The notes beneath the pieces are model-generated. The model ran no database searches. It had not been told where the DNA came from and saw nothing but the letters and a program-made list of their open reading frames with translations. The position numbers were made by a program, and so were the translations under genes. From sequence record PX441839.1: a stretch of DNA of 64,000 nt. The stretch is one strand, 5' to 3'. Origin of the DNA: a phage. Position 1 is the stretch's first letter, and each line of letters begins with the position of its first letter. Below, piece after piece: positions 4,019 through 63,094 of this stretch.

Positions 4019-5509
4019 ATGGCTAAACCACGCAGCCAGCTTGTCGTTTGGGCAAGACAAGATGTTGCTTTGCCAAACACTGGCAGGATCAACAAAGTAA
4101 AACCTATTGATGACCTGTTGAATAAGGGTTATGATAAAGGTCAGAAGCCAGCGGCAGAAGAATTCAACTACATCTTGAACATGTGTACCGATTGGGTACG
4201 ATACATGCACGATGAGAAATTTCCAGAGTTTGAGAGGCAGATAGAAGAGAAGCTTGAAGCCTTCAAAGACGAGATGGAAAAGGAGATGGACAAGGTCCGT
4301 GGGGAAATGGACCAATTGGAAGCCTCTGTTAATAATAAACTGGCGGCTTTTGAATCTTACCTTGTTCCAGTAGGGGCGGTTATTGCTTGGCCCTCTACAA
4401 CAATACCGAAGGGTTGGTTAGAGTGTAACGGACAAGGTTTCAATATTGGTCAGAACCCCCGTCTGTATGCGGCACTCGGAAGAGGTAACGTACCGGATTA
4501 CCGTGGATTGTTCTTGCGAGGATGGGCACACGGTTCTGGTGAATATGATCCTGATGCAGGAAGGACTCTTGGCTCCATTCAGGGTGATGCCATTAGGAAC
4601 ATCACAGGTCGATTCGCTGCTGACCACGGTGAAACATGGATCATTGGTGCCTACAACGAGGGGGCCTTTTATGATGCAGGTGTTGCTGGGTCTGGTGACA
4701 AGGGCGGGAAGGCAAACGAAACCCGTCAGATCCGATTTGATGCCAGTCGTGTTGTACCAACTGCGCCGGAAAACCGACCTAAGAACATCGCAGTAATGTA
4801 CATCATAAAGGCAGATGCTGCAACGGCAACTGGTGGTAATGTCCCAACAGGACTGGAAGTGACACCTGAAACATTTGAGGGCCTTGTAGGTTCTACTTTC
4901 AGAGCCTCTGCTCAAGTTCTTCCAACGAACATGGCTCCTCAGTATCCTGTATCGTGGACCAGTCAAAACCCAGCAGTGGCAACTGTGGACGCCCAAGGTA
5001 ATGTAAGAATTGTTGGTCAGGGGACAACAAGCATTATCGCATCAATATCTTCTGGGATGAACTCTAGGATCTCCATTGTGGGTCACAAACCTCTTACTGG
5101 CCTCTCTATCGCCCAGTTTGAAAATTTAGAGGTCGGTGGGAGCATAAGGACGACTGTAGCAAGAATACCATCTGATTCAACAGAACCCTTAATCTTCTCC
5201 ACTGGCAACACAGGGATCGCCAACGTAACTCAAGATGGGGATGTTGTTGGGGTTGCAGAGGGAACAACTACCATTTCTGCAAGGGGTCGGTTCACAGGGA
5301 TAACTGCCAGAGCAAGCATAACCGTTGTTCCAGAAGAGGTTGTGACAACTGTTGAAGACATTATGCTGGGTATTGAACAGCAAGCTCCAAACGCTGCACC
5401 AAAAGGATGTGTAATAACATACGTCGATGGTGGTGAAAACATGGAGTATGTCAGATATAAGCCCATCCAGAAGAAGGTAAATGGGGTGTGGGTAACTATT
5501 GAGGGTTAA
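4019..5509 (+). CDS. Tail fibre protein with phage tail-collar domain and bacterial Ig-like (Big_2-like) repeats
   Basis: Motif VGAVIAWPSTTIPKGWLECNGQGFNIGQNPRLYAALG matches the tail-collar signature; C-terminal repeats such as PVSWTSQNPAVATVDAQGNVRIVGQGTTSIIAS look like Big_2. Confidence 0.7.
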   Translation: MAKPRSQLVVWARQDVALPNTGRINKVKPIDDLLNKGYDKGQKPAAEEFNYILNMCTDWVRYMHDEKFPEFERQIEEKLEAFKDEMEKEMDKVRGEMDQLEASVNNKLAAFESYLVPVGAVIAWPSTTIPKGWLECNGQGFNIGQNPRLYAALGRGNVPDYRGLFLRGWAHGSGEYDPDAGRTLGSIQGDAIRNITGRFAADHGETWIIGAYNEGAFYDAGVAGSGDKGGKANETRQIRFDASRVVPTAPENRPKNIAVMYIIKADAATATGGNVPTGLEVTPETFEGLVGSTFRASAQVLPTNMAPQYPVSWTSQNPAVATVDAQGNVRIVGQGTTSIIASISSGMNSRISIVGHKPLTGLSIAQFENLEVGGSIRTTVARIPSDSTEPLIFSTGNTGIANVTQDGDVVGVAEGTTTISARGRFTGITARASITVVPEEVVTTVEDIMLGIEQQAPNAAPKGCVITYVDGGENMEYVRYKPIQKKVNGVWVTIEG

Positions 5510-6067: not shown

Positions 6068-6406
6068 ATGATTCTTGATATAATGGCAGTTCTTAAAGCA
6101 CTCTGGGGATTTGCCACTTTTATTTTGTTGGGGATTCTCAAAATTACGTATTCTGACTTCAAAAAGATGCAGGAACGTCAGGACACTCTTGAGAAAGATA
6201 TTATCCGACTCAGGAGTGAGATGGTTACTAAGGACAGTCTTGATGATATTTTTGATCGGAAGATGAAACATATTCAAGACACTATCCAGGATATACGTGG
6301 GGATCTCGCAGACATGCGAGGAGAAACAAAGGACGAGGTTACTGCCTTACGTAATGAAATCAGGACTGTTTTGAATGTAGTTTTGGAGAGAAGCAACAGA
6401 CAATGA
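6068..6406 (+). CDS. Membrane-anchored coiled-coil protein (function unknown)
   Basis: N-terminal hydrophobic segment ALWGFATFILLGILKI followed by charged heptad-like sequence. Confidence 0.4.
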   Translation: MILDIMAVLKALWGFATFILLGILKITYSDFKKMQERQDTLEKDIIRLRSEMVTKDSLDDIFDRKMKHIQDTIQDIRGDLADMRGETKDEVTALRNEIRTVLNVVLERSNRQ

Positions 6407-6864
6407 TATCTTCCCTGTTCTACGGGATGTGCTTCCTGATTGTCCTTATGAACCCTTGCGTTCGTACAAAAATAATGGCGGGGCTATGCCTCGCCTATAT
6501 TGTAATAGAGAATATGATGCTTTGGTACACAATAACCAATGTTATCCATTTCGATATTACCCTTTATCATACCCTCGGGTGGATATTGGATTCAACTCTT
6601 TTGTTTGCAGTGGGTTGTGTTTTAAGAGGAAAGAGGCAGATCCTCATCATAGCTTCCGCAATACCCCTTATGGTGTCTCAAGTGTTAGCAATCCAATATC
6701 CTTCTATGTTCCCACCTGATGTATACCAGTGGGTAATTAAAGATGCTCACATGTATTTTATTGAGATGTTTATCTTCGCTCATTCTTGGAAAGACAACAC
6801 AGTAAAAGAGTGGTTAAAGACAGGAACAGTGTTGGGCCTTGTTGTTGCTGCACATTTAGTTTGA
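6403..6864 (+). CDS. Multi-pass membrane protein (function unknown)
   Basis: 153 aa with about four hydrophobic segments; start overlaps the upstream stop. Confidence 0.4.
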   Translation: MISSLFYGMCFLIVLMNPCVRTKIMAGLCLAYIVIENMMLWYTITNVIHFDITLYHTLGWILDSTLLFAVGCVLRGKRQILIIASAIPLMVSQVLAIQYPSMFPPDVYQWVIKDAHMYFIEMFIFAHSWKDNTVKEWLKTGTVLGLVVAAHLV

Positions 6865-6883
6865 TTGATATTACAGGTGGTAT

Positions 6884-7156
6884 ATGTTAAAATTCCTAAA
6901 GGACTTGATCCGGTCCACAACCGACCCTGCCAAGGCTTCACATACAAAGCTTTGGTCGAATATCGGTATGGCTTCAATGACTGCGGTGTTTCTCTGGTAT
7001 GGTTTCAAAGGAACCCTCCCTGAGTGGTATTTGTGGGTTTATGCCCCTTCCGTTGCTGCACCACAGTTATTTAGCAAACTGATCGCCCTTCGTTGGGGAA
7101 TAAACCCCAACCAGAAGAATACAGAAGATGAATTAAAAGGAGATCCTCGTGGCTGA
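6884..7156 (+). CDS. Small membrane protein (function unknown)
   Basis: 90 aa with two hydrophobic segments; stop overlaps the start of the long fibre gene. Confidence 0.35.
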   Translation: MLKFLKDLIRSTTDPAKASHTKLWSNIGMASMTAVFLWYGFKGTLPEWYLWVYAPSVAAPQLFSKLIALRWGINPNQKNTEDELKGDPRG

Positions 7157-61539: not shown

Positions 61540-61627
61540 GATATTTTTGCAGGATATTTGGATTGATATTTGGGTTCAATTCTCAGATTGAAATTCGATT
61601 TGAGATTTTATTTTAGATTTTTACATA

Positions 61628-61647
61628 TGGGCTTCGGCCCCCTTTTT
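61628..61647 (+). terminator. Short hairpin terminator
   Basis: GGGC-TTCG-GCCC followed by CCTTTTT. Confidence 0.4.
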
Positions 61648-61788
61648 CACATTTGTTGAACAACTTGGAGGTCATACGGAACGATTGGTAGGCGTCAGTG
61701 ATAATTAAGTACAACATTTCACACATTAAGTGCAGAATATTGGCATAACTCACAATATATCACACATAACTTCGTTAACGTATGTTCA

Positions 61789-61975
61789 AAAATTTTGGAA
61801 CTCGATCACTTTTTTAAAATCCAAATCGTATTCGTCAGTGAGGGAATGAGTTGGGTACAGAGGTAAAATTTTGAGAACCGGAGCACTTTTTTAAATCTGA
61901 GATCGTATTCAAAATCCAGATACAGAGTGAAAAATTTGAGAACTAGAGAGCTTTTTTAAAATCCAAATCGTATTC
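61789..61975. repeat. Three imperfect ~47-bp direct repeats (iteron-like)
   Basis: Units near 61789-61834, 61863-61910, 61929-61975, each ending CTTTTTTAAAATCCAAATCGTATTC or a close variant, spaced about 66-74 bp. Confidence 0.6.
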
Positions 61976-62305
61976 TTTTCTAAGTTGTTAAGCACAATTT
62001 TATAGTGGAGTCAATGTGTTTTTAAAATCTTCACAAAAGGTTTAGATGGGAGTGATTATCGTTTAGAAAGGTAAATAAGAATCATTATCATTTGCAGGAT
62101 AGCGGGCACCCCCGGTGTTTTGTACTCCGGTTTCAATGTTCCCGCTATGTGTATAATATACCCTGGACCGTTACCGCTTGCAAGTGTCTTTACATTTATT
62201 TACAAAACTATTTAAGACGAACTACCGGCGATCAACCTTCGGTGCGCCTCCGCTACCTTAGCCCCGCCTTTACGCCGTGGGGTGGCGTTCCTAACCTTTG
62301 AAAAT

Positions 62306-62334
62306 AGTATAGCCAGGCTTGCGCCCGGCGTCAA
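62306..62334 (-). promoter_or_regulatory. Sigma70-like promoter firing leftward into the non-coding/repeat region
   Basis: On the minus strand: TTGACG, 17-nt spacer, TATACT; no ORF downstream. Confidence 0.45.
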
Positions 62335-62337
62335 TAG

Positions 62338-62646
62338 TTATTTTTCCAATTCCCTTAAATAATCCACCACGCCAAACCAATAAGAGATTAACAACGGTTT
62401 AAGTTTAAATTGTTCCTTCCGTGCCAGATAAACAACCTTTACACATTTTTCGTCGGCGTCGATCCTACCCTGGCGGCGCGGGCTGTTGTAAGTTACATCT
62501 TGTATTTTGTGAAGATCTAAGATCTCGCTTACGGTTAAACCTGTTTCCCTTGCCACCTGGTGAACGGTTCCACCTTGCCAACCTAAAGCAGCCATCAATA
62601 GTTCGGTATTGGTTTTCATGTTCCTGTTTCCTTTGTTTGCTTTCAT
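62338..62646 (-). CDS. Small putative DNA-binding regulator (possibly leaderless)
   Basis: MKANKGNRNMKTNTELLMAALGWQGGTVHQVARETGLTVSEI... with HTH-like stretch; ATG lies about 7 nt after the -10 box (alternative start at 62619 with SD). Confidence 0.35.
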   Translation of the reverse strand: MKANKGNRNMKTNTELLMAALGWQGGTVHQVARETGLTVSEILDLHKIQDVTYNSPRRQGRIDADEKCVKVVYLARKEQFKLKPLLISYWFGVVDYLRELEK

Positions 62647-62653
62647 TGCGTAC

Positions 62654-62682
62654 ATAATACCCCCATATAAAAAGGATTGCAA
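62654..62682 (-). promoter_or_regulatory. Sigma70-like promoter (divergent partner)
   Basis: On the minus strand: TTGCAA, 17-nt spacer, TATTAT. Confidence 0.45.
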
Positions 62683-62706
62683 GTAAAAATATTTTATATT
62701 TAGGTA

Positions 62707-62735
62707 TTGACTTGTAAAGGTCAATGATTGATAAT
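62707..62735 (+). promoter_or_regulatory. Sigma70-like promoter with overlapping inverted repeat
   Basis: TTGACT, 17-nt spacer, GATAAT; TTGAC-n8-GTCAA inverted repeat overlaps the -35. Confidence 0.45.
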
Positions 62736-62767
62736 GGCACCACGTTAACAAAACAGGTGATAAAGAT

Positions 62768-63094
62768 ATGCTACAAACTAAATATTATATTGAAGGTATC
62801 CAGGCGGCGCATAACGGCGCGGGGCGTTTCTGCCGTTATCGTAAACCTGAGAACGTAGAACAATGGCAAGCTGGTTATGATAGTGTTGAACGATCCCACA
62901 TGGTGATCCGATTCAACAGCAAGCCAATGGGTAAGCCGCTTACAGCGTACCAGGAGCGCCCCGATCCTGTCTATATGGGGACGCTAAGACAGTGCCAGGA
63001 TCGCGCCGTGTCTTTATCCCTTGCTGACCGTTCGGCATTTTTTGAAGTGTACACAAAAGACGGCGATTTGTACCGATACGAAAGCAAGATCTGA
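62768..63094 (+). CDS. Hypothetical protein with Rmf-like N-terminal motif
   Basis: GIQAAHNGAGRFCRYRKPENVEQWQAGY loosely resembles the ribosome modulation factor core (GYQAG...CPY...QW..GW); weak. Confidence 0.3.
   Translation: MLQTKYYIEGIQAAHNGAGRFCRYRKPENVEQWQAGYDSVERSHMVIRFNSKPMGKPLTAYQERPDPVYMGTLRQCQDRAVSLSLADRSAFFEVYTKDGDLYRYESKI

Follow-up and report, generated by a model that had tools for sequence, protein, structure and literature searches.

Two adjacent minus-strand loci for candidate structured RNAs in a non-coding gap of a Vequintavirinae-like phage

A 64,000-nucleotide stretch of DNA from a lytic, Vequintavirinae-like phage (sequence record PX441839.1; hereafter the window) contains a gap of ~700 bp at 61650-62337 in which inspection of the open reading frames (ORFs) of the window found no convincing ORF. 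The nearest record to this phage is Salmonella phage SSBI34, with 93-97% identity. Part of the gap very probably holds real minus-strand genes for structured non-coding RNAs, which we call RNA B and RNA A. The fuller statement, that these are two adjacent genes with promoters of the host sigma-70 type and that RNA B acts in trans by binding a conserved partner, is one we think probable as a whole, although its last element, the partner-binding mode of RNA B, is tentative. RNA A and RNA B are best seen as small RNA genes that belong to an undescribed family. Elements of this kind are familiar. Unusual here are the family itself, an apparent terminator nested in a promoter, the Fur-like boxes associated with the locus and the fact that homing endonucleases target it.

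The original prediction, made from the letters of the window alone, had proposed a structured minus-strand transcript of 150-200 nt. Covariation and the alternation of G-U and G-C pairs agree with its structure and its strand, but not with a single unit: there are two modules, and a second conserved promoter (62183-62155) lies between them. Because the fold of the single sequence is thermodynamically ordinary and its repeat arms are short, the case for these RNAs rests on comparison across phages. The predicted elements, in the order in which they would be transcribed, are as follows.

62306-62334, minus strand: promoter P1, with -35 TTGACG (62334-62329), a 17-nt spacer and -10 TATACT (62311-62306); 10/12 consensus positions
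62312-62329, minus strand: GC hairpin GCCGGGC-GCAA-GCCUGGC, then UAUACUAUUUU, within the P1 spacer (terminator scan)
62208-62299, minus strand: RNA B, from covariance model R1 and pair counts
RNA B, minus strand: purine-rich leader of ~10-12 nt, 5' of a compact fold of ~85 nt
62287-62284 and 62276-62273, minus strand: RNA B helix S1, CGCC:GGCG, enclosing the loop ACCCCAC
62282-62279 and 62265-62262, minus strand: RNA B helix S2, CCCC (in the loop ACCCCAC) with GGGG, and the A-rich linker UAAAGGC
RNA B, minus strand: CUAA between the pseudoknot and P3
62257-62241, minus strand: RNA B P3, a variable hairpin with a bulged A; GA follows
62238-62234 and 62219-62215, minus strand: RNA B P4, AGGUU:CGUCU, in general (A)AGGU:GUCU(U)
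62233-62220, minus strand: RNA B P4 loop GAUCGCCGGUAGUU, 14 nt, near-invariant
62187-62205, minus strand: AT-rich element TTGTAAATAAATGTAAAGA, with the direct repeat GTAAA(G/T)A, between RNA B and P2
62155-62183, minus strand: promoter P2, with -35 TTGCAA, a 17-nt spacer and -10 TATATT; 9/12 (promoter scan)
62099-62148, minus strand: RNA A, a 50-nt irregular hairpin (inverted repeat I1)
RNA A, minus strand: outer stem AUAGCGGG:CCCGCUAU
RNA A, minus strand: apical stem CCGG:CCGG
RNA A, minus strand: apical loop AGUACAAAACA, part of the conserved motif GAG(U)ACAAA(A)CACC

Conservation and structure of RNA B and RNA A

When a 1.2-kb query was compared with other phages, only its middle 240-270 bp (62074-62345) found matches, and the flanks aligned only in SSBI34. 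This island was recovered from 102 records at megablast sensitivity and from 259 at blastn sensitivity, at ~70-83% identity and with diverged flanks. The segment that contains RNA B (module B, 62208-62300) was found in 227 phage records, among them Vequintavirinae, phAPEC8-like Stephanstirmvirinae, Justusliebigvirus and others, and more diverged copies occur in Erwinia phage Hena1 and in Aeromonas phages 2L372D and 2L372X. Module A (62096-62156) was present in the form seen in the window in 59 records, with related forms in phAPEC8-like and rV5-like phages and in one Vibrio phage. The phages that carry the conserved segment infect Escherichia, Klebsiella, Salmonella, Cronobacter, Pectobacterium, Erwinia, Proteus and Aeromonas. 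Neither module was matched in 5,426 E. coli genomes. When 185,579 species genomes were scanned for GGCT-N14-32-AAGGTNNATCGCCGGNAG, the matches were those of chance, apart from one 4-kb phage-like contig in a metagenome-assembled genome. A metagenome scan added ~20 further phage copies. The most strongly conserved blocks lie in the transcribed part and not in the promoters, and ~30 loop and junction nucleotides of RNA B (GGCU, AAGGU and AUCGCCGG-AG) are invariant or nearly so across distant phages.

S1 and S2 of RNA B together form a predicted H-type pseudoknot, with loops of 1-2, 1-2 and 6-7 nt and helices of 4 and 3-4 bp, lengths that are sterically normal for this type by the usual rules. 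The original prediction had noted a stem-like element, CCCCGCC...GCCGTGGGG, at this place. The element is indeed present at 62263-62282, but it is not a simple hairpin stem; what had been read as the pairing of CCCCGCC with GGCGTGGGG is correctly read as two interleaved helices of the pseudoknot. Invariant junction nucleotides, GGCUA and AAGGU, flank the elements of RNA B. A covariance model of RNA B (R1), built from 30 sequences, scores 94.8 bits at 62208-62297 (minus strand), its single match in the window.

Pairing in RNA B was tested on a realigned set of 46 distinct sequences, and a set of 34 sequences gave the same picture. Standard pairs are formed in 85.6% of cells, compared with 77.3 +/- 0.6% in shuffled alignments, and this level was reached by 0 of 500 shuffles. 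Changes on both sides are seen in 11 of the 19 pairs (6.9 in shuffles), and the covariation score is 0.234, as opposed to 0.092 when shuffled and at most 0.074 when partners were slid by 1-3 columns. P3 is the best-supported helix, with changes on both sides in all 6 of its pairs and pairing that is kept through complete replacement of the sequence. Within S2, columns 20-35 pair as CG in 33 sequences and as AU in 11, the next pair occurs as AU, CG, GC and UA, and the copies from Aeromonas phages have GGAC:GUCU or AGAC:GUCU in place of the S1 helix CGCC:GGCG. The 5' strand of P4 is invariant, and the variants of its 3' strand (CGUCU, CGCCU, UGUCU, ACCU, CCUUAC and CGCCUUA) stay complementary to it; here columns 71-95 pair as GU in 24 sequences and as GC in 15, and columns 72-94 as UG in 44. 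As the frequent alternations between G-U and G-C and between A-U and G-U keep the pairing only on the minus strand, the minus strand is the RNA strand.

RNA A coincides with the first inverted repeat of the original prediction, which lies where it had been placed. Its arms, ATAGCGGGCAC (62099-62109) and GTTCCCGCTAT (62138-62148), are 91% complementary, and the repeat, ATAGCGGG...CCCGCTAT, encloses CCGG at 62112-62115 and again at 62127-62130. The hairpin bears the conserved apical motif GAGACAAACACC, and a covariance model of RNA A (R2) matches 62096-62156 on the minus strand with 72.3 bits. Its outer stem shows AU/GC and GU/GC alternation, with counts for GU/GC of 25/13 and 12/24 and for AU/GU of 22/16. 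The hairpin of module A is marked as an intrinsic terminator in the annotation of Pectobacterium phage phiTE, a reading that we rejected because no terminator was called at 62099-62148 on either strand. Past the stem the minus strand reads CCUGCAAAUG and the plus strand GUGUAUAAUA, and neither has a U-tract.

The context of the modules varies between phages. In the Aeromonas phages RNA B stands alone, with its own TATAAT promoter and with a GC hairpin that follows ~30 nt after it and faces a convergent gene; neither module A nor an AT-rich region or array comes after it. Two homologous loci carry insertions that resemble HNH homing endonucleases. In one (L020), the ORF at 6288-7123 (phrog_953, E = 8e-79) lies between two copies of RNA B, the first with its loop mutated to GAUCGCUGGUAC and the second complete but divergent. 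In the other (L030), the ORF at 4978-5442 interrupts module A and has a weaker match (phrog_3118, E = 2e-6). Insertions into both modules are expected, because the module sequences are strongly conserved.

Three further arrangements were observed. The rV5-like phage FV3 (L006) has two tandem A-like modules, and RNA B is absent there. A second subfamily of A-like hairpins (GAAGCGGCAACGAUGGACACCGGAGGAAAGUCACCGGAGGUGCCCGCUAU) occurs at another intergenic site in related phages, where a Fur-like box follows as well. In one metagenomic lineage (L039, L204, L221, L225 and L241) another long hairpin (GGUGUGUUAUUAAAUGGCG...ACACACU) replaces P2 and module A after RNA B, which suggests that there are further RNA modules in this non-coding island. 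The hairpins of the second subfamily are located as follows.

L018, 4994-5054: A-like hairpin
L007, 4329-4389: A-like hairpin
L044, 4029-4089: A-like hairpin
L232, 8469-8529: A-like hairpin
L035, 1194-1254: A-like hairpin

Promoters and DNA sites at the locus

P1 had already been named in the original prediction, and our promoter scan recovered it on the minus strand as TTGACG-17-TATACT (62334-62306), with 10 of 12 consensus positions. With the usual distance of 7 nt, transcription from P1 would start at about A62299. A match of this type (at least 9/12, with a spacer of 17-18 nt) recurs in 46 of the 47 distinct loci that are homologous, where the end of the -10 lies 41-47 nt before the invariant GGCU. 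The GC hairpin within the P1 spacer appears to be an intrinsic terminator that serves the 93-aa gene upstream and is nested in the promoter, and its U-tract overlaps the -10. In homologues from more than 40 phages the P1 hexamers are constant, and the spacer has changed in sequence yet usually folds, at -4 to -13.6 kcal/mol. Constant hexamers around a spacer that refolds are the pattern expected if promoter and hairpin are both functional.

The AT-rich element TTGTAAATAAATGTAAAGA, a single copy in the window, contains GTAAAGA twice, 10 nt apart, just upstream of the -35 of P2. Most homologues keep it at this place, and in L018 it also stands ahead of a similar promoter at a second locus. It could be the 3' tail of RNA B, or else an upstream element of P2 (UP element or activator site). 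P2 itself has conserved hexamers and a variable spacer, and in most loci it follows the loop motif of RNA B at a fixed offset of 38 nt. Its predicted start, at about A62148, is the first base of the RNA A hairpin. Promoters of the host sigma-70 type point to early expression, and we infer that both RNAs are made early by host RNA polymerase.

On the far side of RNA A, at 62049-62094, lie palindromes that resemble Fur boxes.

62076-62090, no strand assigned: Fur-box-like palindrome, minus-strand reading TGATAATGATTCTTA, differing at 2 positions from the 7-1-7 motif TGATAATnATTATCA
~62049-62067: degenerate second Fur-like copy

The related loci (L001-L024 and others) have one to four such palindromes after module A. 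The first stands at a constant 8 nt from hairpin A, and adjacent boxes are 29 bp apart. Whereas the copy in the window has 2 mismatches to TGATAATnATTATCA, many relatives have 1 and two loci have 0. Measured over 436 kb from 46 related loci, the density of sites with at most 2 mismatches is 9.0/kb within the 145 nt after module A and 0.061/kb elsewhere, a difference of ~150-fold. The boxes were also considered as RNA hairpins, but the commonest variant, TGAGAATGATTATCA, would place a G.A mismatch in the stem. The palindromes behave as DNA sites and not as RNA hairpins; for these sites host Fur or a phage regulator is the candidate binder. The arrangement expected of a Fur-regulated promoter or a RyhB-like small RNA was not seen, as the boxes lie ~60 nt or more past the P2 start and do not overlap its -35 to +1 region. 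A Fur-controlled promoter on the plus strand, reading antisense through the modules, was rejected as well: inspection of the homologous loci found no conserved -35/-10 pair.

Further downstream on the minus strand, 61779-61975 holds three direct repeats of ~55 nt, spaced 77 and 65 nt apart, with 34-36% GC and A-tracts. Other AT-rich repeat arrays occupy the corresponding place in related phages. These repeats may be iterons, an origin or promoter arrays.

Alternative explanations and the favoured interpretation

Could the segment encode a protein instead? Open frames exist on both strands, and several homologues have stop-free plus-strand stretches of 59-80 aa. A small protein from either the 69-aa ORF 62092-62301 (plus strand) or the 40-aa ORF 62212-62334 (minus strand) is nevertheless very improbable. 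The 69-aa ORF begins with TTG and has no Shine-Dalgarno-like sequence upstream; the original prediction was right that a ribosome-binding site is absent. Variability summed per codon position (5.55/6.61/5.63 in module B and 5.06/5.80/5.58 in module A) is flat, with no third-position excess, and the codon-like periodicity that the original prediction had named as evidence against an RNA was not found. The invariant anchors are 14-31 nt apart in all three classes modulo 3, so that their spacing does not preserve a frame. Klebsiella phage K45PH128C2 has frame-breaking indels of 8 nt and 1 nt inside the ORF, the 96.6%-identical SSBI34 has the ORF broken and its stop-free stretch reduced to 39-40 aa, and the 40-aa minus-strand ORF would begin within the promoter. 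As far as sequence comparison goes, coding is refuted and the 69-aa ORF is spurious, not a gene, in keeping with the lack of coding capacity first proposed. Decayed transfer RNA (tRNA) genes are more improbable still. Record OY978796.1 does annotate tRNA-Met and tRNA-Ile over the homologous stretch, but ARAGORN finds none of the three tRNAs annotated in its 5.2-kb locus (Met, Ile and Lys; L001 2469-2622 and 3089-3164), and most of its coding sequences are flagged as pseudogenes or incomplete, so that its feature table appears misregistered. In the window ARAGORN reports 0 tRNAs or transfer-messenger RNAs, also with thresholds at 90%, and at 80% gives one low-quality call over the promoter; the covarying helices form no cloverleaf. 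Among known families, the Rfam search that had been proposed for this segment gave nothing: none of the 4227 covariance models of Rfam 15 matches within 62050-62340 at E up to 10, and with E up to 1 none overlaps either module in the six homologous loci that were scanned. Nor is there a tandem repeat within 62100-62300, as would mark a type III antitoxin.

The main rival is a role in cis, at an origin or in read-through, in which transcription would run into the AT-rich repeats of 61650-62050 with the RNAs as its structured leaders, either to supply a primer or R-loop RNA for an origin or to act as a put-like element that modifies RNA polymerase. Models for the origin version are the primary origin of T7, oriF and oriG of T4, and RNA II of ColE1. 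We regard it as unlikely, although much of the layout would suit it: a 700-bp non-coding gap, two or three tandem minus-strand promoters aimed at a region of 34-36% GC with its three ~55-nt direct repeats, palindromic boxes like protein-binding sites between RNAs and repeats, and RNAs with no terminator after them. Comparable AT-rich arrays also follow the modules in related phages, and a second A-type module there sits between early genes of the same orientation. However, the AT-rich repeats, unlike the RNA modules, are conserved no further than the nearest relative, and GC skew shows a local strand effect only and no origin signal. The unit has no downstream minus-strand gene into which it could antiterminate and runs head-on into a plus-strand operon, and a cis role leaves unexplained why in Aeromonas phages RNA B lies between a promoter and the hairpin of a convergent gene, with the AT-rich array absent. 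It is less probable again that only DNA-level signals matter (promoters, terminator, and operators for Fur or a phage regulator), with the RNA structures as by-products of GC-rich palindromic DNA. Much of the conserved sequence is indeed of a regulatory kind, with two promoters, the terminator-like hairpin in the P1 spacer, the AT-rich upstream element and the Fur-box-like palindromes; the evidence for structure in RNA A is modest, and in the phiTE annotation part of module A is given as a terminator. Yet conservation peaks in the transcribed part and not in the promoters, P3 stays paired when its sequence is replaced completely, hairpin A lacks a U-tract on both strands, and changes of the G-U to G-C type are tolerated on one strand only, an asymmetry that a double-stranded DNA site would lack. 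About equally improbable is that RNA B is a ligand-binding aptamer, riboswitch-like but with no expression platform, or a new class of self-cleaving ribozyme. Invariant loops and junctions in a compact fold are typical of RNAs with a tertiary core, such as the riboswitch and ribozyme families, and RNA B has ~30 invariant or near-invariant nucleotides of this kind in a pseudoknotted fold of ~85 nt; its H-type pseudoknot with an A-rich third loop also has the topology of the preQ1-I and SAM-II aptamers. Against this, no riboswitch or ribozyme model of Rfam matches even at E up to 10, including those of the HDV-like, pistol, twister, hatchet and hammerhead ribozymes. No gene is under the control of RNA B: we found no downstream minus-strand ORF with a plausible start, no terminator and no sequestered ribosome-binding site, as a riboswitch would have. 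Threading RNA B by hand onto the HDV-like, pistol and c-di-GMP-II folds gave topologies that do not appear to fit, the P1 or P2 strand required by the HDV-like and pistol folds being missing.

We therefore return to two RNA genes, with RNA B acting in trans. RNA B would be a stable folded RNA whose invariant loop and junctions bind a partner that is conserved across hosts or phages, and it may serve as a decoy, cofactor or regulator during early infection. A trans-acting RNA B is favoured over a cis leader because it is a stand-alone unit in Aeromonas phages, and because the unit meets the end of an opposite-strand operon head-on in all contexts, so that no gene is left for it to regulate in cis. 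The invariance of ~30 loop and junction nucleotides where the flanks no longer align is a third reason, and it speaks more for a tertiary fold or a specific partner than for a simple seed. The partner would more likely be a protein or ligand than an mRNA. RNA A may be a companion RNA or the 5' stabilising hairpin of the P2 transcript.

Several results weigh against this interpretation. The folding check proposed in the original prediction lends no support to structure, as on neither strand does the minimum free energy of 62060-62305 stand out from dinucleotide shuffles (z = +0.25 for the minus and -0.81 for the plus strand). The sequences compared are kin, which means that the shuffle control overstates significance, and the alignments were fitted to the model structure. 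S2 has just 3-4 bp, its fourth pair needs a 1-nt register slip in most sequences, and in at least one metagenomic copy (L225) it is broken, with CCAA facing GGGG. For RNA A, the covariation score is marginal (0.207, compared with 0.181 shuffled and up to 0.157 when slid), the apical helix is 61% paired and inconsistent among sequences, and RNAalifold returned no consensus structure for the module. The terminator scan of the window found no intrinsic terminator after RNA B or RNA A, which leaves their 3' ends undefined. As to targets, the conserved loops have no complementarity beyond chance to the DNA of the window, where the best site lies in the middle of a 399-aa gene, and their duplex energies with E. 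coli 16S, 23S and 5S ribosomal RNA and three tRNAs fall within the shuffled background. Our literature search also found no RNA sequencing data or publication on the locus. One apparent match, the likeness of AAGGUGGAUCGCC to the 3' end of 16S ribosomal RNA (GGUUGGAUCACC), was set aside, being about at chance level by our own estimate.

A bolder version of the trans-acting interpretation has RNA B as a new class of compact phage RNA, a decoy for anti-defence or host takeover that early in infection would tie up either a signalling nucleotide or a host protein of immunity or regulation. This is speculative, and we hold it to be improbable as stated. Here the pseudoknot scaffold and the invariant 14-nt loop would capture a conserved host target, RNA A and the array of Fur boxes would link the locus to the iron status of the host, and the repeated invasion by homing endonucleases would mirror the indispensability of the module sequences.

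Known systems and the surroundings of the locus

A literature search based on taxa, topics and the loop sequences themselves turned up no description of RNA A or RNA B. Annotations of the stretch are mostly absent or read "hypothetical protein"; one record has tRNAs there and one a terminator, and the rV5 genome paper mentions merely a "non-coding" box without ORFs. The locus corresponds to phiTE_078/079 in phage phiTE.

The species 1 and 2 RNAs of T4 (rnaC and rnaD) are stable small RNAs of a lytic phage whose roles are unknown. Like RNA A and RNA B, they come from short genes for structured non-coding RNAs in a large virulent myovirus, are conserved among relatives and have no assigned function. 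Unlike them, the T4 RNAs lie in a tRNA cluster and are processed like tRNAs, whereas the 64-kb window has no tRNA gene and each RNA here has its own sigma-70 promoter. HK022 put and lambda nut are cis-acting, promoter-proximal RNAs that carry RNA polymerase through terminators into downstream genes. They share with RNA B and RNA A a structured nature, a position directly downstream of early sigma-70 phage promoters and conservation as RNA, but here there is no downstream gene in that orientation, and RNA B stands alone in Aeromonas phages. The 5' domain of RNA B has the same order of elements as preQ1-I and SAM-II: S1, a loop of 1-2 nt, S2, a loop of 1-2 nt, the 3' strand of S1, an A-rich loop of 6-7 nt and the 3' strand of S2. 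It differs from both in having no Rfam match, two more helices with a long invariant loop, and no expression platform or regulated gene. Fur-repressed small RNAs of the RyhB type resemble RNA A in that a small RNA gene stands beside sites like the Fur consensus; however, the boxes here lie downstream of the RNA A hairpin (from ~+59 onward), clear of the promoter, and RNA A has, in our own comparison, no sequence similarity to RyhB, and it has no Rfam match and no Rho-independent terminator.

The pseudo-ToxI of Pectobacterium phage phiTE is a pseudoknot-forming non-coding RNA that mimics a type III antitoxin and works as a trans-acting decoy against a host defence protein (PMC3475682). Its phage belongs to the same subfamily, and its decoy role in trans is of the kind favoured for RNA B. 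Both ToxI and RNA B have a short AGGUGAU-like hairpin start, but ToxI is a tandem 36-nt repeat processed by ToxN and RNA B is a single copy of ~85 nt with another architecture. Identity of RNA B with phiTE pseudo-ToxI was rejected, as pseudo-ToxI lies at a different locus. The closest analogues (the T4 RNAs, pseudo-ToxI, put/nut and the H-type aptamers) appear to be functional and not homologous, and each family tested fails in at least one defining feature.

The Vequintavirinae and phAPEC8-like phages are among the coliphages with the broadest host range and are popular candidates for therapy, and to our knowledge their early regions are almost wholly unannotated. An RNA gene pair in more than 200 of their genomes and in phages of Aeromonas, Erwinia and Vibrio, under a sequence constraint comparable to that of riboswitch cores, would join the few non-coding RNA families of virulent enterobacterial phages. 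Definition of the family would directly correct annotations, for which models R1 and R2 are a starting point. The presence of RNA A beside dense, near-consensus Fur sites also raises the question of whether a lytic phage reads or perturbs the iron regulation of its host.

The gap is bordered by the following features.

61581-61650, plus strand: two terminators at the end of the operon on one side of the gap
62338-62619, minus strand: 93-aa gene on the other side of the gap

The product of the 93-aa gene matches phrog_33408, of unknown function, and has a weak, sub-threshold winged-helix match; the neighbouring proteins gave no informative family. At 61553-61647 a sub-threshold match to the Rfam rimP leader (25.9 bits, with a gathering threshold of 47) corresponds to the two tandem plus-strand terminators that follow a 267-aa gene. 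Between the 93-aa minus-strand gene and a plus-strand gene at 62768, the region 62650-62760 is a divergent promoter region that resembles a small regulatory switch: each strand has promoter-like sites, and there is an inverted repeat of 17 nt (62656-62672 / 62692-62708).

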